Of a DNA stretch of 63,328 bases, positions 3,435-63,014 are shown one piece after another (positions within the stretch are counted from its first letter, which is position 1; each line of letters begins with the position of its first letter). The translations under genes were made by a program, and so were the position numbers. A model generated the notes under the pieces. It had not been told where the DNA came from and did no database searches. It saw only the letters and a program-made list of their open reading frames with translations. Origin of the DNA: Candidatus Desantisbacteria bacterium CG1_02_38_46 (GTDB taxonomy: Bacteria; Desantisbacteria; UBA1551; UBA1559); NCBI GenBank assembly GCA_001871015.1, contig MNUO01000005.1:1-63328 (forward strand), in the 5' to 3' direction.

Positions 3435-3460
3435 GGTGTCAGGTCTTGAATTGTGAATTG
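3435..3460. repeat. Family-B repeat, left half only (GGTGTCAGGTCTTGAATTGTGA...)
   Basis: Shares GGTGTCAGGTCTTGA with 30794, 36915 and 43217, and shares ...CAGGTCTTGAATTGTGA with 40189-40223. The right arm is missing. Confidence 0.7.
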
Positions 3461-3477
3461 TTTTAAATAAGGAAGGT

Positions 3478-18441: not shown

Positions 18442-19833
18442 ATGGAAACAAGTAGACATTTAAAAGAATTTATTAACCAGGATGAATCTGAAGCTTTAGA
18501 ATTTAAAGAATCTTTACAATTAAAAGATGAAATTGGGAAGACGATATCTGCTTTCTCAAATTCTAAAGGAGGAAATATCCTTGTTGGAATTTCTGATAAA
18601 AGAAAAATTAAAGGAGTTCAAGTTGGCAAAAGGACAATTATGGAATTGGCAGAATATATAAAGAGAAATACTGATCCACAAATTTTTCCTGAGATAAAAA
18701 TTCACAAACTTGATGAAAAAGAAATAATTTTTATAATTACTAAAGAGTCTCGAGAAAAACCTGTATTTTTCAAAAATTATGTTTATAAAAGAGTTGGGAA
18801 TACAAATCAAAGAATATCTTCTTCAGAAATAAGGAAATTAGCGAAAGAGATTAAGGAGAAGGTTTACTGGGATGAGCAAATCTGTGAAGAAGCGGATTTA
18901 GATGATATTGAGTGGAACTTTGTAAAAGAAGTTTTTATTCCACTTTATGAAAAAGTTTCTGAAAAAAGAATTGTTGGTAAACCCATAGATTTATTAAAGT
19001 CTTTGAATTGTATAATCGATGATAAGCCAACTAACGCGGGGATACTACTTTTTGGTGAAGAACCACAAAAATTCTTCAGGAGTGCATATGTTGCATTAGC
19101 AAGATATAAAGGTAAAGACGTTGATATTGAAAGATTAGATTACAAGGAGTTTACTGGTAATTTATTCAGACAGATTGACCAATGCAATGCCTATATAATT
19201 GAGCACATTGCTGTAATGTCAAAACTCCAGCCAGGTGAAATCAGGCGCGAAGACATACCAGAGTATGGGAAATTTTCTATCAGAGAATTGATTACTAATG
19301 CTGTGTGCCATAGAAACTACGAGGATTGGGGAAGCAAGGTGATAATAAAAATGTTTACTGATAGAATAGAATTTTACAATCGAGGTGGCTTACCAGAAGG
19401 AATAACTCCTAGAAATATTGTTACAGAACAATATTCAAGGAATCCTACCATTGCAAGAATTTTGGCAAAAGTTGAATACATTGAAGAACTTGGGGAAGGA
19501 TGGGATAAAATAATAAAAGAGCATAAGATGCACTCCTTAAAACCAAAACCGCCACTGATAAAAGCAAATAAATTCAGTGTGCTTGTTACTATCTTTTCAA
19601 CAAAAGATAAATTTGAAGAAAAAATATTTATTAAACTCAATGAACGCCAAAGAAAAGCTCTTGAATATGTAAAAAAGGAAGGGCACATTACCAATACTGA
19701 CTACAGGAAAATATTCCCTGGAATTACAGATAGAACAGTTCTCAACGATTTAAAGGATCTGGTAACTAAGGGTGTATTGAAAAGAATTGGGAAGACTAAG
19801 GGTGCATATTATATGTTGAGAATTCCGAAATAA
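18442..19833 (+). CDS. AlbA_2 (Schlafen-like) / HATPase_c_4 / winged-helix protein (RecG-like putative DNA-binding regulator)
   Basis: ESEALEFKESL ... SAFSNSKGGNILVGI (AlbA_2). RELITNAVCHRNYE ... SRNPTIARIL ... ELGEGWDKI. C-terminal wHTH (RQRKALEYVKKEGHITNTDY). Confidence 0.75.
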   Translation: METSRHLKEFINQDESEALEFKESLQLKDEIGKTISAFSNSKGGNILVGISDKRKIKGVQVGKRTIMELAEYIKRNTDPQIFPEIKIHKLDEKEIIFIITKESREKPVFFKNYVYKRVGNTNQRISSSEIRKLAKEIKEKVYWDEQICEEADLDDIEWNFVKEVFIPLYEKVSEKRIVGKPIDLLKSLNCIIDDKPTNAGILLFGEEPQKFFRSAYVALARYKGKDVDIERLDYKEFTGNLFRQIDQCNAYIIEHIAVMSKLQPGEIRREDIPEYGKFSIRELITNAVCHRNYEDWGSKVIIKMFTDRIEFYNRGGLPEGITPRNIVTEQYSRNPTIARILAKVEYIEELGEGWDKIIKEHKMHSLKPKPPLIKANKFSVLVTIFSTKDKFEEKIFIKLNERQRKALEYVKKEGHITNTDYRKIFPGITDRTVLNDLKDLVTKGVLKRIGKTKGAYYMLRIPK

Positions 19834-19853
19834 TTCCGAAATAATTCCGAAAT
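19821..19853. repeat. Tandem 11-mer AATTCCGAAAT x3
   Basis: Three exact direct copies. The stop codon of the preceding gene (19831-19833) lies inside them. Confidence 0.9.
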
Positions 19854-19963
19854 AATAATTATAGAGTATATAAAGTGATTTAAAAACTCGGCACACCGAC
19901 TTGGCATGATGTTTCTAATATTTGTGGCGTTAGGAATTTTCTAAAACATACAGGGAGGGAAAG

Positions 19964-23446: not shown

Positions 23447-23510
23447 ATATCAGGACTAAAGTCCTGAGTTACATAGTCAGATGTGTAACTCAAACCTTTA
23501 GGTTTGATAT
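23447..23510. repeat. Two family-A hairpin units in inverted arrangement
   Basis: ATATCAGGACTAAAGTCCTGAGTTAC (23447-23472) and GTAACTCAAACCTTTAGGTTTGATAT (23485-23510). Both stems are fully paired but have different sequences. Confidence 0.9.
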
Positions 23511-30681: not shown

Positions 30682-30711
30682 TTATATAGAGCGTCATAAA
30701 TAATTACGTAT

Positions 30712-30779
30712 TGTAGTGGTCGAGCTTGCTCGACTTGTAGTGGTCGAGCTTGCTCGACTTCTGGCAGAGTAAACTCTGC
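30712..30779. repeat. Two family-C units plus a variant hairpin
   Basis: TGTAGTGGTCGAGCTTGCTCGACT at 30712-30735 and 30736-30759, then GCAGAGTAAACTCTGC (30764-30779). Confidence 0.9.
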
Positions 30780-30793
30780 ACTTCCCGCATATA

Positions 30794-30822
30794 GGTGTCA
30801 GGTCTTGACAAATGACAAATAT
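30794..30822. repeat. Family-B element, left 29 nt only
   Basis: GGTGTCAGGTCTTGACAAATGACAAATAT is identical to the first 29 nt of the 69-nt element at 36915 and then diverges. Confidence 0.85.
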
Positions 30823-31896: not shown

Positions 31897-31935
31897 ATTG
31901 GCGGGGAGATGGGTACCCGCCGCAAGGAGGTTAGA

Positions 31936-33237
31936 ATGAAAAGGGTAGTTTTGGTTTTGTTGGTTGGTTGCTTTATCCTTTCGTGTGGAACAGGATGGGC
32001 AGGCAAGCCCGAAGAAACAGGCAAGCCCGAAGAAACAGGTAAGCCTGAAAAAACAGGTAAGGCGTTAGGAAAAGAGAAACATTTTTCAATGGGGGGCTCA
32101 ATTGGTGCAGTTGGTTTAAACGGACAGATGTATTACCGAATTGCGCTTCAGCCAGTGCTAAAGTTCGGCAAGCTCAAAGCTGGTTTAAATCTGAAGCTGG
32201 ATTGGAATGATACTGAGGGCATAAAACCTTATACTGTAGAAGACTGGGTTAATTTGGTTCTTTTTATTCAGTGGGCAGAAAAGGGTGAAAAGCCTCTGTA
32301 TTTCAGACTTGGGGATCTTCAATCTGCTACACTTGGACATGGTTTCATTGTCAACAGGTATTCAAACATGACACCTAAGGCATACAATAATGGCTGGCGT
32401 AATATCGGTTTGGAGTTTGACCTGAATATGGATAAATGGGGATTTGAATCAATCTTTAACAATATTCTTGGCCCGAATTTATGTGGCATAAGAGGTTATG
32501 TAAAACCTCTAAAACTTGCTGATTCTGAAATTCCTATTTTGAATGAACTTGCGCTGGGAGTAAGTTATGCTACAGATGTTGAAACAGGAGTATATGTTGA
32601 CACATACACAAATCTCCCAGAAAAAAATGTGCAGATTATTGGAGCGGATCTGGATCTGCCCATTCTTGATGGATGGCTAATCTATTTCTTTGATATTGCA
32701 CATATATTAAACCATGGAGATGGTTGGGCTACAGGATTTATGGGCGGAAAAGATTTCAATTTCTTATCTCTTGCTTACAAATTTGAATACCGCAATTTAG
32801 GTTCTGATTTTCTTCCCAGATTTTTTGACAATTACTATGAATTCAGCAAACCAAAACTTGTGCAATCACCCAGCGATGTAAGATATAATGGTTGGTACGG
32901 AGAATTAAATTTCAGTATTTTAAAGGCAGTCGGGATACTTATTTCCTATGAAGATTCCTTTAAAGGTGCGTCAAAAATTGAGGGTAATCCAAGACTGCAC
33001 GGAACTTTAATTTTAAACGAGAATCTATTTGCGATAACAAATCAGCGAATTTCAGTATCCGCAGAGTATGACCATAAAAATTTTGATAGAGGTAGGGCTG
33101 AAGACATCGCGATTCAGGGTAAATTTTTATATGGTGTCTCGCAAAACGTTGACATAATTTATGTTTACACTCAAAGATATACTTCAGATGGCAATCCGAT
33201 CAGGTCTACTTCTATTGAAACGAAGCTACATTTCTAA
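31936..33237 (+). CDS. Hypothetical outer-membrane beta-barrel protein with GKPEET repeats
   Basis: ATG behind AAGGAGG (the ORF opens at 31909). Signal/lipobox-like LVGCFILSCG, GKPEETGKPEETGKPEKTGK, alternating-hydrophobic strands, C-terminal ...KLHF. Confidence 0.5.
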   Translation: MKRVVLVLLVGCFILSCGTGWAGKPEETGKPEETGKPEKTGKALGKEKHFSMGGSIGAVGLNGQMYYRIALQPVLKFGKLKAGLNLKLDWNDTEGIKPYTVEDWVNLVLFIQWAEKGEKPLYFRLGDLQSATLGHGFIVNRYSNMTPKAYNNGWRNIGLEFDLNMDKWGFESIFNNILGPNLCGIRGYVKPLKLADSEIPILNELALGVSYATDVETGVYVDTYTNLPEKNVQIIGADLDLPILDGWLIYFFDIAHILNHGDGWATGFMGGKDFNFLSLAYKFEYRNLGSDFLPRFFDNYYEFSKPKLVQSPSDVRYNGWYGELNFSILKAVGILISYEDSFKGASKIEGNPRLHGTLILNENLFAITNQRISVSAEYDHKNFDRGRAEDIAIQGKFLYGVSQNVDIIYVYTQRYTSDGNPIRSTSIETKLHF

Positions 33238-33315
33238 ATGTAACTCAGGACTTTAGTCCTGACATGTAACTCAGGACTTTAGTCCTGACATGTAACTCAG
33301 GACTTTAGTCCTGAC
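33238..33315. repeat. Three exact tandem family-A units (26 nt each)
   Basis: ATGTAACTCAGGACTTTAGTCCTGAC x3 starts directly after the stop codon. A further ACACAC/GTGTGT hairpin lies at 33326-33344. Confidence 0.95.
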
Positions 33316-33377
33316 ATTTTGAGTTACACACTTTCTCGGTGTGTCTCTGTGCCTTCGTGGTTGAAAAGTGAGGATTT

Positions 33378-35404: not shown

Positions 35405-35992
35405 GTGGTTAAGGTCGGTTTTATTGGATGTGGGGGAATGGCTGGAGTGCATCTGGATAAACTGAAACAGATAGAAGATGTGCAGATAGTGGGTTTATGT
35501 GATATAATAGAAGAAAAGGCAAGGGTGTACAATCAGAAATATGGTGGCAATGTATATACTGACCACAGGGTGATGCTTGATAGGGAAAAAAGTGTTCATT
35601 CTCTCGGATACAGGGGTTTGCTGACAGATATACCGGAAAATGATGTTGACGATGCTTCATCGGCTAACCTTAAGTTTAAAAGCGGAGCCGTTGGCAATTT
35701 TTCAACCACATGTATTCTAAATCCAGGAGTAGGTATGGGACTTGAAATTGCTCTTAAACACATGATGATAAAGGCAGATTCTTCTGGTTACAGTATTATC
35801 AGCGAGCAGCCCCAGGAGGTTAAGGCTACAAATGACTACCTGCTGGATATAGAAAAGTCATTCATAGAGGCAATAAAAACAGGTGACCGTTCTAAGATAA
35901 AATGTAATTATGAGGACGGAATGAAAACTCTTGAAGTAACTCTCGCAGTAAATGAATCAATAAAGACAGGGAAGACCATTCATTTAAAGTAA
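35405..35992 (+). pseudogene. Gfo/Idh/MocA-family oxidoreductase remnant (internally deleted)
   Basis: Only 195 aa. The Rossmann start VKVGFIGCGGMAG...YTDHRVMLDREK jumps straight to C-terminal-domain-like sequence, and no EKP motif is present. The intact family member at 44187-45359 is 390 aa. The stop codon lies inside a repeat unit. Confidence 0.55.
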
Positions 35993-36108
35993 CTCAAACC
36001 TTTAGGTTTGATATCAGGACTAAAGTCCTGAGTTACGTAACTCAGACCTTTAGGTTTGATATCAGGACTAAAGTCCTGAGTTACGTAACTCAGACCTTCA
36101 GGTCTGAT
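35989..36108. repeat. Five abutting 24-nt family-A units in alternating orientation
   Basis: Units at 35989, 36013, 36037, 36061 and 36085: forward, reverse, forward, reverse, forward. Followed by TTTTT. Confidence 0.95.
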
Positions 36109-36910: not shown

Positions 36911-36914
36911 AGAT

Positions 36915-36983
36915 GGTGTCAGGTCTTGACAAATGACAAATATCAGGACTAAAGTCCTGAGTTACATGTCAAGACCTGACACC
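36915..36983 (+). mobile_element. 69-nt MITE-like element: 17-bp terminal inverted repeats (family B) enclosing one family-A hairpin
   Basis: GGTGTCAGGTCTTGACA...TGTCAAGACCTGACACC. By manual comparison it is the exact reverse complement of 43217-43285. Confidence 0.8.
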
Positions 36984-37003
36984 AGGAAAAAAGGAGGGTT
37001 AAA

Positions 37004-37150
37004 ATGGCAGAGGGAAGATGTATGAAGTGTAAGAAGCAGGTGGAGATTAAGGACGGAAAGGAATTGGTGATGAAGAACGGAATGAAAGCTATCCAGGGTG
37101 TTTGCCCGGATTGCGGAACAAAGGTTTTTAGAATTTTGGGGAAAAAATAA
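37004..37150 (+). CDS. Small zinc-ribbon protein (DUF5679-like, 48 aa)
   Basis: ORF below the track cutoff, behind AAGGAGGG: MAEGRCMKCKKQVEIKDGKELVMKNGMKAIQGVCPDCGTKVFRILGKK with CxxC...CxxC. Confidence 0.65.
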   Translation: MAEGRCMKCKKQVEIKDGKELVMKNGMKAIQGVCPDCGTKVFRILGKK

Positions 37151-37165
37151 ATAATATAGGGGGTT

Positions 37166-38390
37166 ATGGAAAACAATAAATTTTTCAGGAGGAACTTTAC
37201 TCTTAATATTCTTTGGGAGGCGACCTGGGGTCTGGGTTCAGGATTTGTTGTTCCTGCGACTATTCTTGTTATTTTCCTTACTCATTTTACTTCTTCAAAA
37301 ATGGTCATAGGATTACTTTTTACTATTCCTGTAATAAGTAGTGCAATTGCTCCCATTTTTTCTGCTTATTACTGGTCGCCTCACCCTTAAGAAAAAGATA
37401 TTACTATATTTGCATTTGGCCTATCTCGCTTGTTGGCTGGCGCTTGCAATATTTGCTTTCTTTTCTGCAAGGCTTAATCCGAGGTATGCACTTTTTATAT
37501 TTTTCTTTTTTTATGGATTGTCGAGTTTCATTATTGGAATAATTATTCCTCCATACTTTGATTATATTGGGAAAGTAATACCCAGGAATCGCGGAATTTA
37601 TTTTGGCATTGCTTTATCATCCAGCGCTGGATTGGCTATCATCGGTGCTTTGTTAGCGAGTCGAGCCCTCGATAATTTTTCATTTCCAGCCAGCTACGCA
37701 GTGTGCTTCTCAGCTTCTTTCTTAATACAATTTTTATCATTAATATTTTTTATTTTTAACGTTGAACATGATAATTCAGCGGGTTCATCGTTAACTGATG
37801 CGAGATTTAAATTTAGCAGTTATCTGCATACTCTTTTTAGGATTTTAAAAGAAGATAAAAGTTATTTTAATTTACTCCTTGTGCAAATAATTATTAGCTT
37901 TGGAGCAATGTCTTATTCTTTTTATACAGTATATGCAAACTCCATATTAAGTCTTAGTGGTAATCTTTTGGGGCGCCTGACAATCATGCTTGTCCTGGGA
38001 CAAGTTGTTGCCGGCATTATTCTTGGAGTTGTAGGTGATATTCAAGGACACCGCTTTTCTTTGGGTATTGCAATTCTGTGTGGGATTGGTTCAGCAATCA
38101 TAGCAATTTTTGGAAGATCAATTGGTTCCTTCCAGGCAATTTTCTTTCTTGCAGGTATTTCATTAACATCAAGCTATATTGAAATCACTAATTTAACATT
38201 AGAGGTGGCAACTATTGATGAGAGGTCTTCATATGCTGCATTGAATTCAACCCTTGTAGGACCTTTTGCTGCAATTGCTCCGTTGTTAGGAGGAATTCTT
38301 ATTTGCAATATTTCCTACACTTTCGTATTTGGACTTACTGCAGTCGTGCTGATTATAGGTTTCCTGATGGTGTTGTTTTTAAAGTGGTAA
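37166..38390 (+). pseudogene. MFS-type transporter interrupted by a frameshift at a T6 run
   Basis: ORFs 37166-37390 and 37341-38390 are both polytopic and contiguous. Shifting frame at TTTTTT (37356-37361) joins ...SSAIAPIF to LLITGRLTLKKK. Confidence 0.6.
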
Positions 38391-38400
38391 AAGGATAAAA

Positions 38401-40203
38401 ATGGAGAAAAAAAGAAAAATTTTGATTGCTATTTCTGTTATTTGCTCGAGCTGCATTGCAGCATATTTAATTTATAATTTAGCTGGTGGTGGTCCCCGTG
38501 CATATCTGAGAAAAGCAGATGCACTGCTGAAGGAAAAGCGATACGAGGAAGCAATCAATTTCTATAACCTCGCCCTGGAGAAAAAACCTAAATTTCCTGA
38601 AGCTCTTATTGGTATAGGGTCTGCCATTGATGCTATTGGCAGGCCCAGGGAAGCAATTAATTACTTTGATGAAGCAATCGAGATTAATCCAGGACTTGCA
38701 AAAGCGTGGAATTATAAAGGAAGTGCTCTGTACAGTCTTGGAAAATTGAATGAATCACTCCAGTGTTATGAAGAGGCATTGCGAATTGACCCTAAATATG
38801 GCAGCCCATGGGCAAACAAGGCTTCAATTCTAAGGGTACTTAAAAAATATGATGAGGCAAAAATATGTCTTGACAATTATATCAGACTTAAGGCAAATAG
38901 ACTGAAATTTGAAATTACCGTACTATCAATAGAAGAAACCATTAAAAGAATTTCGCCCTTAATTGAAAGGGTGACAGGACTTCATTACAAAAAAGAGGTG
39001 AAGGTTAAATTTATTGCTCCTCACGAGATGGAGGAACTTGCAAAAAGAGATTTGCTCAGGCAATCACTGTCCGAACTCTATTCTGCTGTTATTTTCACAA
39101 GATATGATGTTACGGACAAAATTCTTTATATTGTGCCGGATAATTTCCAGATGGATATTGTATTGTTGAAGATTGGCAAATCAAGAATTAAGCCACTTTT
39201 AGATTTGCTGGTGGGGCATGAATTGGTGCACGCCCTTCAAGACCAGCACTTCAATATTGGAACAAAAATGCTGACAATTAAGGATGTTGAGGAAAAACAA
39301 ATTTTTGATTGTATAATGGAGGGACATGCAGTTTCTACAATTGAGCAGGTTTCAGAGAAGATGGGGCTGAGTAAGGACATCGCTAGATTGAGTGCAAGGG
39401 TTTCAGCAGGAGATTTTCGTGAGAACTCTCCATTTGATAGGATGGCAACACAATATGTCACTTCTTTGTTCAACCAGACTTATTTAAAAGGTGCAGCGTT
39501 TGTCAGATTTATTCATGCAAAAGAGGGCAACCAGGGCATTGCGAGGTTGTTCAACAATCTTCCAAAAAAGTTGTCCATCGTAGTGCGGCCGCAGACTTAT
39601 TACGAGAAACTTCCAAAGGAAATAGATTATTCAAAGGTGTTTGGTGTAATTGAAAATGTAATACCGGATACAGGCTGGCAGAAACATGGTATGCCACTGC
39701 AGGAAATTTCACTCAGGAGTGGACTGTCAGCATGGGTATCTTCAAAGAAACTTGAAGAAGCTCTTGCCGGTTTTGAAGAGGGTTTTCTGCTCACATTTAT
39801 GAAGGGAGGGGAATCATTAATTTCCGCAGCGATTATCAGGTTTGGGAGCAATAAAGAAACAGATAATTTTTTTGAAGTTAATAATGGATCAGTGAAGAGC
39901 CAGTGGAATATGATTAAAAGGTCCCCGGGCATGAGTATTACAATCCTGCAGAACAAAAAATTTTCAATACTTCTGGCAAGAAAAGCAATTATAAAAGAAG
40001 CTGAGATTATGCGGTCTTCCGGCCAGAAAATGCACACATTGAATATTATTGCGGCATTTGAAAATTTTATCATTGATATTTCTTTCATAAACTGCAAAAT
40101 TGACGAAGCGGGTACCCACGAAGTGGGTGCAAAGAAAGTTATTTCCAGGATTTTAGAAAAATTAAATCAGGAATTAAAGGAGAAAAAAGGTATCAGGTCT
40201 TGA
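38401..40203 (+). CDS. TPR-repeat protein with C-terminal HExxH putative metallopeptidase region
   Basis: N-terminal membrane helix, TPR-like repeats (residues ~40-170), HELVHALQDQH motif. The stop codon lies inside a family-B hairpin. Confidence 0.5.
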   Translation: MEKKRKILIAISVICSSCIAAYLIYNLAGGGPRAYLRKADALLKEKRYEEAINFYNLALEKKPKFPEALIGIGSAIDAIGRPREAINYFDEAIEINPGLAKAWNYKGSALYSLGKLNESLQCYEEALRIDPKYGSPWANKASILRVLKKYDEAKICLDNYIRLKANRLKFEITVLSIEETIKRISPLIERVTGLHYKKEVKVKFIAPHEMEELAKRDLLRQSLSELYSAVIFTRYDVTDKILYIVPDNFQMDIVLLKIGKSRIKPLLDLLVGHELVHALQDQHFNIGTKMLTIKDVEEKQIFDCIMEGHAVSTIEQVSEKMGLSKDIARLSARVSAGDFRENSPFDRMATQYVTSLFNQTYLKGAAFVRFIHAKEGNQGIARLFNNLPKKLSIVVRPQTYYEKLPKEIDYSKVFGVIENVIPDTGWQKHGMPLQEISLRSGLSAWVSSKKLEEALAGFEEGFLLTFMKGGESLISAAIIRFGSNKETDNFFEVNNGSVKSQWNMIKRSPGMSITILQNKKFSILLARKAIIKEAEIMRSSGQKMHTLNIIAAFENFIIDISFINCKIDEAGTHEVGAKKVISRILEKLNQELKEKKGIRS

Positions 40204-40223
40204 ATTGTGACAAGACCTGGCAC
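40189..40223. repeat. Short family-B hairpin GGTATCAGGTCTTG-AATTGTGA-CAAGACCTGGCAC
   Basis: 9-bp stem CAGGTCTTG/CAAGACCTG (40194-40202 / 40211-40219). Overlaps the TGA at 40201-40203. Confidence 0.85.
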
Positions 40224-40236
40224 ATGGAGAATTGGC

Positions 40237-40635
40237 ATGAAAAGAGATAAAATTATTTTGAAGGGAATGACTTTTTATGGTTATCATGGCGTATCCAAAG
40301 CGGAGAGAAAAACAGGTCAGAGATTCTACATGGACATAGAGATGACCCTGGATTTGGGAGAGGCAGGCAAGACAGATAAATTATCAAAGACTATTGACTA
40401 CACGCAGGTTTACTCTCTTATAAAAGAAATACAATCTAAGAAGAAATATCATCTTATGGAATCACTGGCTGAGGATATTGCAAATGCTGCACTTGATAAG
40501 TTTGACAGATTAAACGAAGTTACTGTAAAAGTAAGGAAGCCCCACGCGCCAATTGGGGGGTTGATGGAATATGTAGAAGTGGAGATTAATAGATTGAAAA
40601 AGCAGCAAGAACCGTGGCGCTCGAGAGTGAGATAA
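40237..40635 (+). CDS. folB: Dihydroneopterin aldolase
   Basis: IILKGMTFYGYHGVSKAERKTGQRFYMDIEM and DYTQVY motifs. The ORF opens at 40207 inside the repeat; ATG 40237 chosen. Confidence 0.85.
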   Translation: MKRDKIILKGMTFYGYHGVSKAERKTGQRFYMDIEMTLDLGEAGKTDKLSKTIDYTQVYSLIKEIQSKKKYHLMESLAEDIANAALDKFDRLNEVTVKVRKPHAPIGGLMEYVEVEINRLKKQQEPWRSRVR

Positions 40636-40642
40636 AATACCG

Positions 40643-40665
40643 TGTAGTGGTCGAGCTTGCTCGAC
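40643..40665. repeat. Solo family-C unit
   Basis: TGTAGTGGTCGAGCTTGCTCGAC lies between the folB stop and the fhs ribosome-binding site (GAGGAGG). Confidence 0.9.
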
Positions 40666-40681
40666 ATACAGAGGAGGCAAG

Positions 40682-42376
40682 GTGCTAAGTGATCTGGAAA
40701 TAGCCCAAAGGGCAAAGATGAAACCGGTGTTGGAGATTGCAAGAGATATTGGAATTGAGGAAGATGAGCTGGAATTGTATGGCAAGTACAAAGCAAAGGT
40801 AACGCTTGAAATCTTGAAAAGATTGGAGAGTAAACCTCAGGGCAAGTATATTGATGTGACTGCGATTACTCCAACTCCTTTGGGAGAGGGGAAAACTGTC
40901 ACAACGATTGGTCTGTCTCAGGGTTTGAATAAAATTGGTAAGAAAGTTATTACGACCATCAGACAGCCATCTCTGGGTCCTGTTTTCGGGATAAAAGGAG
41001 GGGCAGCAGGAGGTGGCTATTCCCAGGTTCTGCCAATGGAGGATTTTAACCTTCATCTAACAGGCGATACTCATGCAGTAAGCCTTGCACACAATCTCTG
41101 TGCTGCATTTCTCGACAACTCAGTTTTAAAAGGCAACAAGTTAAATATTGACCCATTAAGTATCACATGGCGGCGCATCATTGATGTGAGCGACAGGTTC
41201 TTAAGAAACATTATCGTAGGGCTGGGTGGGAAAGAAGATGGATTTCCCAGACAAACAGGATTTGATATTTCAGTTTCATCAGAGGTAATGGCTATACTTG
41301 CTCTCACTACAGATTTGTTCGATATGCGCAAACGCCTTGGTAGAATTTTACTTGCTGCAACATATGATGGCAAGCCAGTAACTGCTGAAGATATCCAGGT
41401 TGCGGGTTCCATGGCTGTGTTAATGAAAGATGCAATTAAGCCCAATCTTTTGCAGACAACAGAGAATACACCCTGTTTTGTTCATGCAGGTCCATTTGCG
41501 AATATAGCTCATGGTAATTCATCAATAATTGCAGACAGGGTTGGGCTTAAACTTGCAGATTATGTCGTTACTGAAAGCGGTTTTGGTGCAGATTGTGGTA
41601 TGGAAAAGTTTATGAATATCAAATGCCGGTATAGCGGACTTATACCAAACTGTGTAGTAATAGTTTGCACAGTGCGGGCACTGAAGATGCACAGTGGCAA
41701 ATTTCAAGTTATTGCAGGTCGTCCCTTAGATGAAGGATTGGTTAAAGAGAATTTGCAGGTGCTTGATGAAGGAATCTGTAACCTGCAGAGGCAGATTGAA
41801 AATGCAAAATTATTTGGTGTGCCGGTTGTCGTGGCAATAAATAAATTCACCACAGATACAGACAAAGAAATTGAGTTAATCCACAAACGTGCTCTTGAGT
41901 CTGGTGCTGAGGATGCAGTTTTGAGCGAAGTTTGGGAAAAGGGTGGGGAAGGTGGGAAAGAACTTGCAAAAGCAGTTGTAAAGGCATGCGAAAAACACTC
42001 TAAGTTCCAATTCCTTTATCCGCTTGATATTTCCATCAAAGAGAAAATTGAAGCAATAGCCACTAAAATCTACGCAGCCGAAGGTGTTTCTTACGCACCG
42101 CTTGCAGAAGAAAAAATAAAACTCTACACGAAATTTGGTTTTGACAAATTTCCAATATGTATGGCGAAGACTCATCTTTCACTTTCACATGAGCCTTCAT
42201 GGAAAGGCGTGCCGAAGGATTACATCCTTCCAGTCAGGGATATCCGGGCATCAATTGGTGCAGGATTTTTATACCCATTGTGTGGAGAAATGCGCACAAT
42301 GCCAGGACTTCCAACAACTCCAGCAGGTACAAAAGTAGATATTGATAAAGACGGAAAAGTAGTCGGGCTGTTCTAA
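40682..42376 (+). CDS. fhs: Formate--tetrahydrofolate ligase
   Basis: LSDLEIAQ start, TPTPLGEGKTVTTIGL, GPVFGIKGGAAGGGY, THLSLSHEP. Confidence 0.95.
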   Translation: MLSDLEIAQRAKMKPVLEIARDIGIEEDELELYGKYKAKVTLEILKRLESKPQGKYIDVTAITPTPLGEGKTVTTIGLSQGLNKIGKKVITTIRQPSLGPVFGIKGGAAGGGYSQVLPMEDFNLHLTGDTHAVSLAHNLCAAFLDNSVLKGNKLNIDPLSITWRRIIDVSDRFLRNIIVGLGGKEDGFPRQTGFDISVSSEVMAILALTTDLFDMRKRLGRILLAATYDGKPVTAEDIQVAGSMAVLMKDAIKPNLLQTTENTPCFVHAGPFANIAHGNSSIIADRVGLKLADYVVTESGFGADCGMEKFMNIKCRYSGLIPNCVVIVCTVRALKMHSGKFQVIAGRPLDEGLVKENLQVLDEGICNLQRQIENAKLFGVPVVVAINKFTTDTDKEIELIHKRALESGAEDAVLSEVWEKGGEGGKELAKAVVKACEKHSKFQFLYPLDISIKEKIEAIATKIYAAEGVSYAPLAEEKIKLYTKFGFDKFPICMAKTHLSLSHEPSWKGVPKDYILPVRDIRASIGAGFLYPLCGEMRTMPGLPTTPAGTKVDIDKDGKVVGLF

Positions 42377-42382
42377 TTGTAC

Positions 42383-42578
42383 TGTAGTGGTCGAGTTTAC
42401 TCGACTTGTAGTGGTCGAGATTGTTCGACAATTGTAGTGGTCGAGTTTACTCGACTTGTAGTGGTCGAGTTTACTCGACTTGTAGTGGTCGAGCTTGTTC
42501 GACAATTGTAGTGGTCGAGTTTACTCGACTTGTAGTGGTCGAGTTTACTCGACTTGTAGTGGTCGAGTTTACTCGACT
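42383..42578 (+). repeat. Tandem array of 8 family-C hairpin units (24 or 26 nt) plus a partial ninth
   Basis: Units start at 42383, 42407, 42433, 42457, 42481, 42507, 42531 and 42555, all head-to-tail. There are no spacers. Confidence 0.95.
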
Positions 42579-42591
42579 TGTAGAGGTGAAA

Positions 42592-43215
42592 ATGTTGTAT
42601 ATTGAAAGTTCAATTAAAAAGTATCTGGAAGATTTATCAGCAAAATTGCCAGCTCCTGGAGGCGGGAGTGTCGCAGCTCTCGTTGGAGCGCTGGCTGCAG
42701 GCTTGGGTTCAATGGTGTGCAACTTTACCATCGGGAATGAAAAATTTGCATCACAAGAAGAAACTAAAGGAGTGTTGTCGATGGTAGCAGGGTTACAGGA
42801 AGAATTATGTAAATTGGTGGATGAAGATACAAAGGTTTATGGAAAAGTAAATCTTGCATACAGGTTACCTAAGAATACTGAAGAAGAAAAAGTTCGTCGT
42901 GCTCTCGCAATTCAGAAAGCATTGAAGCAAGCAATCCCTGTGCCGATGCGGATTGCTCAGGTTTCTTATCAATTGTTGGAAACTTCACTCCAATTGTTAG
43001 AAATTGGCAATCCAATGTTGATTACTGATACAGGGATGGTAGCAATTCTGGCGTATGCAGCACTTGAAAGTGCGCGTTTGAATGTTGAGATTAACCTGTC
43101 CAGTATAACAGATGAAGAATTTGTTAAGCAAAAGCGAGCAGTATTAAATCCTTTGATGGAAAAGGGCAAAGCAATAAAGGATGAAGTAGTAAAGAAGGTA
43201 GAAGAAAAAATATAA
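42592..43215 (+). CDS. fchA: Cyclodeaminase/cyclohydrolase-family protein (FchA/FTCD C-terminal type)
   Basis: LSAKLPAPGGGSVAALVGALAAGLGSMV signature. ATG 42592 sits behind GAGGTGA. The longer ORF from 42421 merely translates the repeat array. Confidence 0.8.
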   Translation: MLYIESSIKKYLEDLSAKLPAPGGGSVAALVGALAAGLGSMVCNFTIGNEKFASQEETKGVLSMVAGLQEELCKLVDEDTKVYGKVNLAYRLPKNTEEEKVRRALAIQKALKQAIPVPMRIAQVSYQLLETSLQLLEIGNPMLITDTGMVAILAYAALESARLNVEINLSSITDEEFVKQKRAVLNPLMEKGKAIKDEVVKKVEEKI

Positions 43216-43216
43216 T

Positions 43217-43285
43217 GGTGTCAGGTCTTGACATGTAACTCAGGACTTTAGTCCTGATATTTGTCATTTGTCAAGACCTGACACC
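43217..43285 (-). mobile_element. Second copy of the 69-nt MITE-like element, inverted
   Basis: Exact reverse complement of 36915-36983. Sits between the fchA stop and the folD ribosome-binding site. Confidence 0.8.
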
Positions 43286-43301
43286 AGATTGGGAGGGTAG
43301 A

Positions 43302-44162
43302 ATGGCTGCACAGTTATTGGACGGAAATGTTGTTGCACAGGGGATTAAGGATGCTGTTGCAAAGGAGATTGAGGCATTGAAAGCAAGAGGAATCACACCT
43401 AACCTTGCAGCAGTGCAAGTTGGAGACAATCCTGAATCAAAAATGTATATAGGTATGCAGAAGAAGAATTGTGAGTCAATGGGAATAACTTATAATCTGC
43501 GTCCACTGCCAACAGACACAGCTGAATCAGGATTAATTCAGTATATTGAAAAGTTGAATGAAGATAAAAATGTTAATGGCATTATTCTTCAGATGCCTTT
43601 ACCTCAGGGAATTAACCCTCGCAATATTCAAAGGGTTATATCGCCGCGCAAGGATATAGAAGGTGTTAATCCTGCCAATATGGGAATGCTTTTCTATGGG
43701 AGTCAAAAAATAGGTCCCTGCACAGCCCTGTCAGTTATGGAATTATTAAAATCAACCGGAGAAAATCTTAAAGGCAGGGAAGCTGTTGTGGTAGGACACA
43801 GCGAGATTGTAGGAAAACCAGTTGCAATACTGCTTCTTCAATGGCTTATGGATTCTCCCACTGTAACGGTTTGTCATATTGCTACCAGAGACCTTGAACT
43901 TCATGTCCGAAGAGCTGATATTCTCATTTCTGCAGTTGGGAAACCCGGTTTGATAAAAAGTGAATGGATAAAAGAAGGTTCGATAATTGTTTTGGTCGGA
44001 ATAAAGAGAATGCCTGATGGAACTGCTCATGGCGATGTTGATTTTGAACAAGCCTCAGCAAAGGCTTCATGGATTACACCTGTGAAGGGTGGCGTTGGAC
44101 CTGTGACTACCGCGATTCTTTTAAGGAACACGCTTGAAGTTACAAAACGACAGTTGGAATAG
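43302..44162 (+). CDS. folD: Bifunctional methylene-THF dehydrogenase / methenyl-THF cyclohydrolase
   Basis: LDGNVVAQ start, VGDNPESKMY, DIEGVNPANMG, VVGHSEIVGKP, GGVGPVTTAILLRNT. Confidence 0.95.
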   Translation: MAAQLLDGNVVAQGIKDAVAKEIEALKARGITPNLAAVQVGDNPESKMYIGMQKKNCESMGITYNLRPLPTDTAESGLIQYIEKLNEDKNVNGIILQMPLPQGINPRNIQRVISPRKDIEGVNPANMGMLFYGSQKIGPCTALSVMELLKSTGENLKGREAVVVGHSEIVGKPVAILLLQWLMDSPTVTVCHIATRDLELHVRRADILISAVGKPGLIKSEWIKEGSIIVLVGIKRMPDGTAHGDVDFEQASAKASWITPVKGGVGPVTTAILLRNTLEVTKRQLE

Positions 44163-55054: not shown

Positions 55055-55956
55055 AAAAATCCGCAGCGATGAACTCCTTACTTCAAATTACAAAGTTGCT
55101 TTTACATAAGCAGGGGATAAGAGTAAGGAAATATTTGGGACAGAATTTTCTTATTGATGAGGAAGTGTTACACAAGATAATTGAAGCTGTAAATTTATCT
55201 CCAGATGATTTTGTCCTGGAGATTGGAGCGGGACCGGGTATTTTAACAAAGGAGATTGCTAAAAGAGTAAAAAGAGTCATTGCTATTGAGCTTGACCAGA
55301 ATTTAATCAAAACATTAAGGGAAAATTTAAAGAATTACCCCGGCGTGGAAATAATAAAAGGGGATGTGCTCAGGTTGAATCTTAAATCCCTTTTTCCAGC
55401 AAATATCCCTGTTAAGATAATCGCCAATCTTCCTTATTATATTACCACTCCAATAATTATGCATCTTTTAGAGCAGAAATTCCCACCTTTTACGAGGTTA
55501 GTTATTATGGTTCAAAAGGAAGTGGGATTAAGGATTGTTGCTTCTCCCAAATCCGCAGACTCTGGAGTACTTTCAGTTATCCTGCAATACTATTCTAAAC
55601 CGGAATTAATCTCTATTGTGCCACGGAAAGCTTTTTTTCCTTCACCGAAGGTAGATTCTGCTATTGTGAGATTGACCATACGGAAAAACCCACCTGTCCA
55701 AGTAGTAAATGAAAACTTATTTTTTAAGGTAGTTAGAGCTTCTTTCAGTCATCGTCGCAAGACTCTAACAAATTCATTATTAAAGAGCCAGTTGGGACTT
55801 GATAAAGAAAAAATTACACAGTTGTTAGCAGATGCTCATATAGAGCCTGATTTGAGAGCACAATCTTTAAGTTTACAGAATTTTGCTCACCTGGCAAATA
55901 CATTGATAAAAACCACAGGGGCACAGAGACATCGATATTGTAACTCAGGACTTTAG
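55051..55956 (+). CDS. rsmA: 16S rRNA (adenine1518/1519-N6)-dimethyltransferase
   Basis: KYLGQNFLIDE, LEIGAGPGILT, ANLPYYITTPI. ATG 55069 is an alternative start. The last 6 codons and the stop lie inside a family-A repeat. Confidence 0.9.
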   Translation: MKKSAAMNSLLQITKLLLHKQGIRVRKYLGQNFLIDEEVLHKIIEAVNLSPDDFVLEIGAGPGILTKEIAKRVKRVIAIELDQNLIKTLRENLKNYPGVEIIKGDVLRLNLKSLFPANIPVKIIANLPYYITTPIIMHLLEQKFPPFTRLVIMVQKEVGLRIVASPKSADSGVLSVILQYYSKPELISIVPRKAFFPSPKVDSAIVRLTIRKNPPVQVVNENLFFKVVRASFSHRRKTLTNSLLKSQLGLDKEKITQLLADAHIEPDLRAQSLSLQNFAHLANTLIKTTGAQRHRYCNSGL

Positions 55957-56061
55957 TTTTGATATGTAACTCAGGACTTTAGTCCTGATATCAAAACTAA
56001 AGTTTTGAGTTACAACTTTCTCTATATCAAAACTAAAGTTTTGAGTTACAACTTTCTCTAT
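55940..56061. repeat. Four family-A units, including a 36-nt direct duplication
   Basis: Forward units at 55940 and 55966; reverse units at 55990 and 56026. ATCAAAACTAAAGTTTTGAGTTACAACTTTCTCTAT occurs twice in tandem (55990-56025, 56026-56061). Confidence 0.95.
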
Positions 56062-60288: not shown

Positions 60289-60346
60289 ATAGAAACGATT
60301 AATGTGTTGTAACTCAAACCTTCTCGAAGAGTCCGATTGAAATAAT

Positions 60347-60448
60347 ATCAGGGCTAAAGTCCTGAGTTACATATCAGGGCTAAAGCCCTGAGTTACATAT
60401 CAGGGCTAAAGCCCTGAGTTACATATCAGGACTAAAGTCCTGAGTTAC
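60347..60448. repeat. Four tandem 26-nt-period family-A units (reverse orientation)
   Basis: Units at 60347, 60373, 60399 and 60425. Stems are GGGC/GTCC (one G-T), GGGC/GCCC twice, and GGAC/GTCC. A degenerate unit lies at 60309. Confidence 0.95.
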
Positions 60449-60457
60449 ATAAATAAA

Positions 60458-62927: not shown

Positions 62928-63014
62928 GTAACTCAGGGCTTTAGCCCTGATATGAGCATGCAGAATGTAACTCAGGGCTTTAGCCCTGATATCAAACCTA
63001 AAGGTTTGAATTAC
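62928..63014. repeat. Three family-A units
   Basis: Forward units at 62928-62951 and 62967-62990 (stem TCAGGGC/GCCCTGA). Reverse unit at 62991-63014 (TCAAACC/GGTTTGA, flank GAATTAC). Confidence 0.9.

Follow-up and report, generated by a model that had tools for sequence, protein, structure and literature searches.

Repetitive extragenic palindromes (REPs) are defined by two parts, a conserved 5′ GT(A/G)G tetranucleotide and, after it, a palindrome whose sequence varies, and they occur as singles, as inverted doublets (REPINs) and as clusters known as bacterial interspersed mosaic elements (BIMEs; PMC3686654, PMC3733652). In the literature on GTAG-type REPs, head-to-tail dimers and arrangements are reported to be rare (PMC3686654, PMC3733652). 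Here, we describe an arrangement of this kind in a 63,328-nt stretch of DNA from Candidatus Desantisbacteria bacterium CG1_02_38_46 (contig MNUO01000005.1, positions 1 to 63,328; hereafter the window), where eight hairpin units lie between fhs and fchA, two genes of folate one-carbon (C1) metabolism. The array belongs to the known GTAG-type REP clusters and reveals no novel class of regulatory element; what makes it noteworthy is a head-to-tail series of unusual length, the variation between strains and the lineage of the host. With a probability of roughly 80%, we read it as a copy-number-variable, head-to-tail cluster of selfish GTAG-type REPs and not as a folate-specific device.

The units of the array, which belong to a family referred to here as F1, are arranged as follows.

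42383-42578, + strand: head-to-tail array of eight F1 (GTAG-type REP) units in the fhs-fchA spacer
42383-42406, + strand: unit 1, type A
42407-42432, + strand: unit 2, type B (loop ATTG)
42433-42456, + strand: unit 3, type A
42457-42480, + strand: unit 4, type A
42481-42506, + strand: unit 5, type B′ (loop CTTG)
42507-42530, + strand: unit 6, type A
42531-42554, + strand: unit 7, type A
42555-42578, + strand: unit 8, type A

Type A is the 24-mer TGTAGTGGTCGAGTTTACTCGACT, present in six copies with 0 mismatches. Type B is a 26-mer, TGTAGTGGTCGAG-ATTG-TTCGACAAT, and B′ is the same with the loop CTTG; both share the stem GTCGAG/TTCGAC with a G-T pair closing the loop and a CAAT tail. A first-pass annotation of this DNA had described eight units, six of 24 nt and two variants of 26 nt, in the order A B / A A B′ / A A A, and its coordinates and sequences were reproduced. 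The same order emerges from Tandem Repeats Finder (TRF), which calls a period of 24 nt (8.4 copies, 42383-42587) and a second period of 74 nt (2.5 copies, 99% identity) corresponding to [A B A][A B′ A][A A]. The spacer is, however, not made wholly of units as had been stated, since it opens with 6 nt (TTGTAC) ahead of the first unit and closes with 13 nt behind the last one. Unit matches numbered 9 in the window against 0 expected, none of 100 dinucleotide shuffles of the window giving any match.

On its own, a unit folds into a hairpin with a computed stem of 6–7 bp, in line with the earlier description. Folded as RNA, type A reaches −8.8 kcal/mol and B and B′ about −6; folded as DNA, A reaches −5 and the two variants −3.5 to −3.9. 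The minimum free energy fold of the whole spacer consists of nested unit-unit pairing and was set aside as the trivial outcome for identical palindromic units. The units abut with a 2-nt linker and adjoin without spacers, which separates the array from CRISPR arrays; all eight face one way on the + strand, so that the array is no REPIN, and as a purely head-to-tail series without alternation it is no BIME either.

A unit was taken as a REP if it measured 20–40 nt and had, behind an unpaired GT[A/G]G at its 5′ end, a palindrome able to form a stem-loop. The F1 unit, TGTAG-TG-GTCGAG-TTTA-CTCGAC-T, shows this GTAG tag, stem and 4-nt loop: an unpaired 5′ tag, (T)GTAGTG(G), precedes a 6–7 bp stem, GTCGAG/CTCGAC, and the end bases of the loop can also pair. 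Among published classes, Stenotrophomonas SM12 (GTAGAGTCGAGCTTGCTCGACT) comes closest, along with SM11 (TGTAGAGTCGAGCCATGCTCGACT), which has a named REP-associated tyrosine transposase (RAYT; PMC3686654, PMC3733652). The stem core (TCGAG...CTCGA) and the CTTG loop of SM12 are nearly the same in F1, which differs from SM12 and SM11 mainly in the bases between tag and stem, its tag GTAGTGG being one base longer than that of SM12. More broadly, F1 resembles the GTAG REPs of E. coli (REP/BIME), Pseudomonas and Stenotrophomonas in its length of 22–26 nt, its GTAG tag and short palindrome, its high copy number and strictly extragenic location, its compensatory subclasses and its occurrence as singles, inverted doublets and clusters. 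It departs from them in that the host is an uncultured low-GC groundwater bacterium and not a proteobacterium, that eight units stand purely head to tail, and that no cognate RAYT for F1 was found in the loci searched here. Tandem REPs with few flanking bases also lie beside operon genes in the GTAG-1 arrays of Thauera sp. MZ1T (PMC3733652); amplification and clustering go together in both cases, whereas sequence class and host differ and the array described here has a 2-nt linker and a 74-nt period. The earlier description of the array itself thus held, but it had missed the GTAG-type REP identity, a commoner family (F2) and the F2 transposase, both discussed below.

Variation among copies bears on what is conserved. 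Variants of F1 and F2 were gathered by tag and loop centre, without a pairing requirement, and kept if seen at least twice. For F1, 95.8% of cells pair and both sides change in 6 of 7 pairs (slid controls 28–52%); for F2, the values are 96.1% and 3 of 7, and slid controls of the two families together give 16–52% pairing. The F1 stems seen are GTCGAG/CTCGAC, GCAGAG/CTCTGC, GCAGAC/GTCTGC and GGCGAG/CTCGCC, with C:G to T:A changes and the reverse in the loop-closing pair as well; F1 and F2 both form the compensatory subclasses known for REPs. Because variants chosen without regard to pairing still pair far above the slid controls, the hairpin itself is under constraint, which fits recognition of a folded single strand, DNA or RNA alike.

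F1 units are also found outside the array. The two further window loci that had been pointed out, a solo and a double copy, were both recovered, and an inverted partner REP lies next to the second. Contigs of the window organism carry F1 as REPIN-like doublets, as BIME-like arrays of doublets (L221) and as further head-to-tail arrays.

40643-40666, + strand: solo F1 unit with loop CTTG, folB-fhs spacer
30712-30759, + strand: two F1 units with loop CTTG, head to tail
30764-30785, − strand: inverted partner REP, GCAGAG-TAAA-CTCTGC, with a degenerate tag
L168: head-to-tail F1 array of five units, 23-nt period, antisense to flanking genes
L226: head-to-tail F1 array of at least four units, 30-nt period, antisense to flanking genes
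L138: head-to-tail F1 array of two units, 28-nt period, antisense to flanking genes

At 30712-30785, the two F1 units and their inverted partner thus form a REPIN-like doublet. Altogether, the window contains 11 F1 units in 3 spacers and 23 F2 units, with 0 of the 34 inside genes; F1 or F2 units are present in 11 of its 19 spacers of at least 25 nt, and by a rough estimate about 27% of its intergenic bases are REP units. In about 1 Mb of compositionally matching contigs, 115 F1-superfamily units were counted. Units in both samples are dispersed and extragenic, as is typical of REPs. Two REP superfamilies occupy most of the longer spacers of this genome, and their identification accounts for the repeats that fill them. 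An implied link of the array to C1 metabolism found no support, as F1 and its relatives sit in many unrelated spacers in both orientations. Likewise, F1 arrays follow no transcription-strand rule: those in the window are sense to the flanking genes, unlike those at L168, L226 and L138. Locus-specific linkers, the identity of units within arrays and the chimeric units of a further array (L124), whose arms no longer pair, point to local tandem duplication and recombination; insertion over and over again, or selection acting on an RNA motif, would not explain them.

The F1 pattern GTAGTGGTCGAG-N4-YTCGAC was also sought in one genome per species, which gave at least 109 loci against about 9 estimated by chance (uniform base composition). 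Among the matches listed, F1 occurs in metagenome-assembled genomes (MAGs) labelled Nitrospinae, Planctomycetes/Brocadiales, Stahlbacteria, WOR-3, Desantisbacteria, Ratteibacteria and Zixibacteria as well as in Stenotrophomonas and others, often on many contigs per genome. Among the 112 F1 units of those genomes listed, 90 carry the loop CTTG and 46 have the inverted partner GCAGAG(C/T)AA(G/A)CTCTGCCACTAC within 45 nt, as a REPIN-like doublet. The 22-nt F1 unit and its inverted partner are almost unchanged in MAGs labelled as distant phyla and in Stenotrophomonas (L008-L116), and in ‘bacterium Yes70-08’ F1 forms part of a longer multi-copy element. This distribution over phyla could reflect horizontal spread, deep conservation or binning errors. 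The idea that the TTTA loop of F1 was borrowed from F2 was dropped, TTTA loops being common in the partner REP of other phyla.

A composite of about 128 nt, consisting of a 30-nt leader (TTATATAGAGCGTCATAAATAATTACGTAT), two to three F1 units and the partner REP, is common to L164 (1296-1423) and the window (30682-30785), and the flanking genes of the two loci differ. Such sharing indicates that the doublet moves or recombines as a larger unit. L164 had been considered as an orthologue of the 30712 locus with three units instead of two, and was rejected, also as evidence for a variable unit number, when alignment showed only the 128-nt composite to be shared.

The history of the fhs-fchA spacer can be approached through relatives. 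FchA homologues of 81% and 69% identity lie in the same folB-fhs-fchA-folD order, which agrees with the earlier placement of the array inside an operon; this conserved gene string is co-oriented, tightly packed and presumably co-transcribed. The fhs-fchA spacers of these two relatives measure 10 nt (GGGAGAAACC) and 15 nt, and no REP was found in any of the three spacers of their gene strings. A homologue of 83% identity, in the closest sister taxon (L247), has a different palindromic insert in the fhs-fchA spacer and no F1 there. This insert is another composite repeat of related organisms, in which F2-like or similar stems enclose about 30 nt (TTTTCGAAGAYCCGCCR...GGAGGGA), at L247 745-857 and at L233 2798-3000 and 3483-3741. 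Since sister taxa have spacers of 10–15 nt without the repeat, the array is a recent, lineage-specific insertion that grew by local tandem duplication. One F1 unit would have landed in an ancestral spacer of about 10–15 nt, between the stop codon and the Shine-Dalgarno sequence (SD), and would then have multiplied on the spot, through either slipped-strand mispairing or unequal recombination. The identity of the six A units and the near-identity of the 74-nt period form the basis for local amplification, and a recent duplication of the 74-nt block of three units would be part of the growth of the array. The outcome would be a hypervariable locus with a variable number of tandem repeats (VNTR), persisting because it is tolerated.

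Variation in unit number is directly seen among assemblies. Seven other public contigs encode an identical FchA of 207 aa and have the same spacer flanks with different unit strings.

MAG GCA_002779445.1: A B′ A A A (5 units)
JGI 3300025868: A A B′ A B′ A A (7 units)
MAG GCA_002785525.1 (L003): N gap, then B′ B′ A A A (at least 5 units)
Four megahit assemblies: A (single unit)

Together with the window, the series beside identical FchA proteins comprises 8, 7, 5, at least 5, and 1 units, the 1-unit form being unverified, and thus bears out the suggestion that unit number might be polymorphic among strains. The locus resembles bacterial VNTRs and contingency loci in this variation beside identical flanking proteins; unlike contingency loci, it lies neither in a coding region nor in a promoter spacer able to switch a gene. 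As a second line of evidence, Logan contigs (k=31) of eight groundwater DNA runs were placed on the stretch. The left-flank contig runs from unit 1 into unit 2 in 5 of the 5 covered runs, the A-B′-A junction forms its own contig of 65–72 nt at about flank depth in four runs, and no k-mer contig of the eight runs joins both flanks across one unit, the 1-unit allele being unseen there. The multi-unit array is real and its number is variable. The figure of exactly eight units belongs to this assembly only, and the k-mer data support a multi-unit form.

The gene string surrounding the array and the junction to fchA are as follows.

40207-40635, + strand: folB (PF02152), first gene of the folB-fhs-fchA-folD string
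40682-42376, + strand: fhs (formate-tetrahydrofolate ligase, PF01268), stop codon TAA at 42374-42376
42579-42591, + strand: array-fchA junction TGTAGAGGTGAAA, with unit-like TGTAG and then the SD GAGGTGA at 42583-42589
42592-43215, + strand: fchA (FTCD_C/methenyl-THF cyclohydrolase family, PF04961), 207 aa
43302-44162, + strand: folD (PF00763/PF02882)

All 56 large open reading frames (ORFs) of the window lie on the + strand. The first hairpin stem (42389) begins 12 nt past the fhs stop codon. At the other edge, the SD GAGGTGA stands 2 nt upstream of the fchA ATG at 42592, outside the hairpins and unpaired. No sigma-70-like promoter was detected in the array and no terminator-like site in the whole spacer (42377-42591), where each stem is followed by TTGTAG and not by the U-tract of an intrinsic terminator or attenuator. 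The first-pass annotation had attributed the fchA SD to a truncated ninth unit. This attribution is weak, as only TGTAG, or 9 of 13 positions, is common to the junction and the unit, and the core AGAGG...AAAATG is also present in L247 without an F1 unit at that place. The SD regions of L247 (TTGAGAGGGTAAAATG) and the window (TGTAGAGGTGAAAATG) agree at 12 of 16 positions. Because L247 has the core and no F1 unit, the fchA SD core most likely predates the repeat and was not supplied by a unit; the ‘ninth unit’ amounts at best to five unit-like bases (TGTAG), which may represent microhomology at the array edge.

The second family, F2, is more abundant than F1 in the window, occurs on both strands and fills 8 of the 19 spacers that measure 25 nt or more. 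Its unit, GTAAC-TCAGGAC-TTTA-GTCCTGA, has a 7-bp stem (TCARRNC) and a loop of TTTA or TTCA, with the compensatory stem variants GGGC/GCCC, AACC/GGTT, GACC/GGTC and AAAC/GTTT.

23450-23507: F2 units
33238-33317, + strand: F2 array of three head-to-tail units, period 26
35989-36108: BIME-like F2 array of five alternating units, period 48
36943-36965: F2 unit inside a composite palindrome
43216-43290, + strand: composite palindrome between fchA and folD, one F2 unit framed by inverted 18-nt arms (TGGTGTCAGGTCTTGACA...)
43235-43257: F2 unit inside this composite palindrome, fchA-folD spacer
55940-56049: F2 units
60345-60451, − strand: F2 array of four head-to-tail units
62928-63014: F2 units

A metagenome scan with the F2 23-mer yielded 115 contigs (984 kb, mean GC 0.388), on which ORFs for Y1 transposases were detected by phmmer with E. 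coli RayT as query. RAYT loci of these and other contigs are listed below.

L186, 5905-6468 (locus to 6589): RAYT gene with F2 (+) just upstream and two F2 (−) just downstream
L208: partial copy of the L186 RAYT
L121 and L163: RAYT genes, likewise flanked by F2
L241-L243: further RAYT loci with inverted F2 flanks

Against the NCBIfam model NF047646 (‘REP-associated tyrosine transposase’, cut-off 80), these RAYTs reach 88.9 (L186) and 94.2 bits, and they also clear the Pfam model Y1_Tnp (PF01797). The tetranucleotide correlation of L186 and L208 with the window, 0.96–0.985, is consistent with an origin from the window organism, without proving it. F2-type units flank every one of the homologues at 50–60% identity, whose sources include a Desantisbacteria-labelled genome and a Brocadiaceae MAG. 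Given the RAYTs between inverted F2 units and the F2-flanked homologues, F2 and its RAYT clade form a canonical and widespread REP system. Compared with the REPIN-RAYT systems of Bertels and Rainey (PMC3116915, PMC5581495), the L186 locus is alike in its single Y1 (HUH) gene with inverted REPs, and F1 likewise forms inverted doublets, at 30712-30785 and many other loci. In contrast to gammaproteobacterial REPINs, which are strictly lineage-bound, F1 and F2 are found almost unchanged across several phyla. These findings extend REP/RAYT systems to uncultured low-GC groundwater lineages, which, to judge by the best RAYT match, are probably near Candidatus Desantisbacteria.

L233/L234, from an organism of GC 0.48 labelled Desantisbacteria, contain two RAYT paralogues, each with its own F2 arrays. 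A third repeat element, with arms TGGTGTCAGGTCTTGACA and the motif TTTGTCATTTGTCA, builds the composite palindrome at 43216-43290 and its reverse copy at 36913-36985, both of which enclose F2, and has half copies at 30790-30820 and 3446-3470; the element lies just upstream of SDs. Together with the F2 loop it displays a sigma-70-like TTGACA-N18-TAAAGT, on the + strand at 36926-36955 and on the − strand at 43274-43245.

Several explanations other than a selfish REP cluster have to be weighed. An assembly artefact, in which the assembler had multiplied one unit, would agree with the four megahit assemblies that have one unit and with the N gap inside the array of one MAG (L003). We consider this very improbable, as the three other independent assemblies contain 5, 7 and at least 5 units, all including the B′ marker, and as the Logan contigs enter unit 2 in five runs and yield separate A-B′-A junctions in four. 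Moreover, B and B′ are 74 nt apart and runs of identical A units are at most 72 nt, so reads of about 150 nt should be able to resolve the array. The first-pass annotation had named a collapse to one or two units in read data as decisive against the array; the 1-unit form was not seen in the k-mer contigs of the eight runs and is known from the four megahit assemblies. It is scarcely credible that the repeats are coding and form a repetitive N-terminal extension of FchA. An ORF from TTG 42421 does run in frame into fchA (to 43215, 264 aa), a public protein call of 246 aa (P0121) starts inside the array, and the 24-nt unit is open in two of three frames, which is why gene callers over-extend here. 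FchA homologues, however, are mostly 207–213 aa long with an alignment that begins at ATG 42592, a strong SD stands ahead of that codon, the 26-nt units shift the frame, alleles with a different unit order alter it, and sister taxa are devoid of any such extension. The 246-aa and 264-aa calls are over-extensions into the array, which is thus a hazard for annotation, where fchA is over-called, and for assemblers, which break or collapse there.

Functional explanations concern the mRNA or the DNA. By analogy, hairpins without a U-tract on a polycistronic mRNA would let transcription read through, could block 3′-to-5′ exonucleases in favour of the upstream fhs segment, and might uncouple fchA translation from that of fhs; the position of the first stem might also disturb termination at the fhs stop codon. 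In E. coli, a REP within 15 nt of a stop codon reportedly disturbs termination. At this locus, a dedicated RNA regulatory platform of the folate C1 operon, either bound by protein or acting as a programmed processing or stability element, could draw on the location of the array on the transcribed strand of a conserved gene string without a terminator-like site, on hairpins that are stable as RNA, and on a first stem 12 nt past the fhs stop combined with an unpaired SD. Published internal hairpins without U-tracts also protect upstream operon segments in E. coli (malEFG type; PMC5927463). The fhs-fchA spacer resembles the malE-malF REP in having stable hairpins without a U-tract between genes that are, here presumably, co-transcribed, right after a stop codon (PMC5927463); it differs in having eight hairpins and not one or two, and in that relatives manage without the array, so that no selected function is shown. 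We judge the platform distinctly improbable, since F1 units occupy unrelated spacers and arrays can run antisense to the genes beside them, the operon of sister taxa has 10–15 nt spacers without the repeat, the L124 array includes chimeric units that cannot fold, and no Rfam family matches: Rfam 15 gave 0 gathering-score matches in the window, with only sub-threshold miRNA-like hairpin noise at 40100-43400. The same holds, at similarly poor odds, for the part of this explanation in which the platform would set the Fhs:FchA stoichiometry, with unit number, which differs among strains, as the tuning knob. Alternatively, GTCGAG-N4-CTCGAC might act in DNA as an array of operators or nucleoid-protein sites for supercoiling or replication. 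Palindromic units on both strands genome-wide would suit this, and published REP/BIME clusters bind integration host factor (IHF), gyrase and Pol I (PMC3686654). As an explanation of the array it is distinctly improbable: it would be a secondary use by the host and no rival to REP identity, the sequence points to no particular binding protein, copy number is unconstrained and relatives are without the array. A bolder and likewise unlikely combination holds jointly that the array is a copy-number-variable post-transcriptional valve whose hairpin number would set the Fhs:FchA/FolD ratio, and that F1, near-identical over 22 nt across phyla, would spread horizontally or through a foreign RAYT acting in trans. 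If the valve existed, slippage would produce heritable, reversible variation of C1 flux in a population.

Among the three roles the first-pass annotation had offered, namely differential mRNA stability, a protein-binding platform and purely selfish expansion, the last fits best, given the dispersed copies, the sister taxa without the array and the variable number. A selected, operon-specific role is unlikely because relatives are without the array, its unit number is free to vary and units occur in either orientation elsewhere. Differential mRNA stability is a plausible side effect, known for such elements. In this respect, the alleles with 1, 5, 7 and 8 hairpins in the same operon provide a natural series for REP effects on mRNA decay and translation.

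Some observations weigh against a selfish, copy-number-variable REP cluster. All statements on the array at the mRNA level rest on analogy; among the RNA sequencing runs looked up, none contained this stretch. The 1-unit alleles occur only in megahit assemblies and not in the k-mer contigs of eight runs, and may be assembly collapses. The RAYT contigs appear tied to the window organism by composition and the shared F2 23-mer. Finally, a cognate RAYT was found for F2 (L186) and none for F1: no F1-flanked tyrosine transposase is present in about 1.8 Mb of fetched loci, and a second RAYT clade (L026 type) that was examined has no F1 flanks. The search compared E. coli RayT and the new RAYTs by phmmer with six-frame ORFs of all loci, and matched only the F2-flanked genes, a pseudogenised Y1 gene (L200) and a Brocadiales gene 930 nt from an F1 doublet. 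Inverted F1 pairs 300–1500 nt apart enclosed only housekeeping ORFs, and clustering of the ORFs beside F1 in F1-rich genomes revealed no recurrent transposase. F1 may be an orphan class now changing only by slippage, or it may be mobilised in trans.

The Brocadiales Y1 gene (L026) was rejected as the F1 RAYT, as its homologues carry their own palindrome and not F1. The clade is very large, with over 7,500 matches at E≤1e-20. In the four members examined, L026, L249, L253 and L254, a near-perfect palindrome, GTAGGGGTTCAAAATTTTGAACCCCTAC, lies inside the gene between the HUH and Tyr motifs, and in L249 another copy stands immediately ahead of the gene.

L026, 3138-3165: palindrome GTAGGGGTTCAAAATTTTGAACCCCTAC
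L249, 1398-1425 and 1771-1798: the same palindrome
L253, 1864-1891: the same palindrome
L254, 1774-1801: the same palindrome

The Y1-type gene of L200 (7024-7700) is longer, lies on a compositionally matching contig between a xerC/D-like integrase gene and a DHH-family gene, and is interrupted by a TAA stop in frame. With no REPs at its flanks, it could be a RAYT in decay.

Further features were recorded elsewhere in the window. An ORF of 195 aa at 35405-35992 matches the first half of the GFO_IDH_MocA N-terminal domain only and its end enters the BIME-like F2 array; the repeat cluster may have cut this gene short. Directly downstream of the composite palindrome at 36913-36985, an unlisted ORF of 48 aa (37004-37150) with a strong SD encodes two CxxC pairs (MAEGRCMKCKK...CPDCGTKVFRILGKK) and probably specifies a small zinc-ribbon protein. 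The gene for a transporter of the major facilitator superfamily (MFS) at 37166-38390 looks split: a hydrophobic N-terminus is encoded from 37166 by an ORF of 74 codons, and the main ORF (37341-38390, GTG start) continues in another frame, which may reflect a frameshift, a pseudogene or a sequencing error. Two short tandem repeats were also noted. At 32000-32061, an 18-nt repeat that keeps the frame (3.4 copies) gives rise to GKPEET repeats in the ORF 31909-33237, which has no Pfam match, and at 19821-19856 a perfect 11-nt repeat, AATTCCGAAAT (3.3 copies), spans the end of the ORF 18442-19833 and the next spacer.

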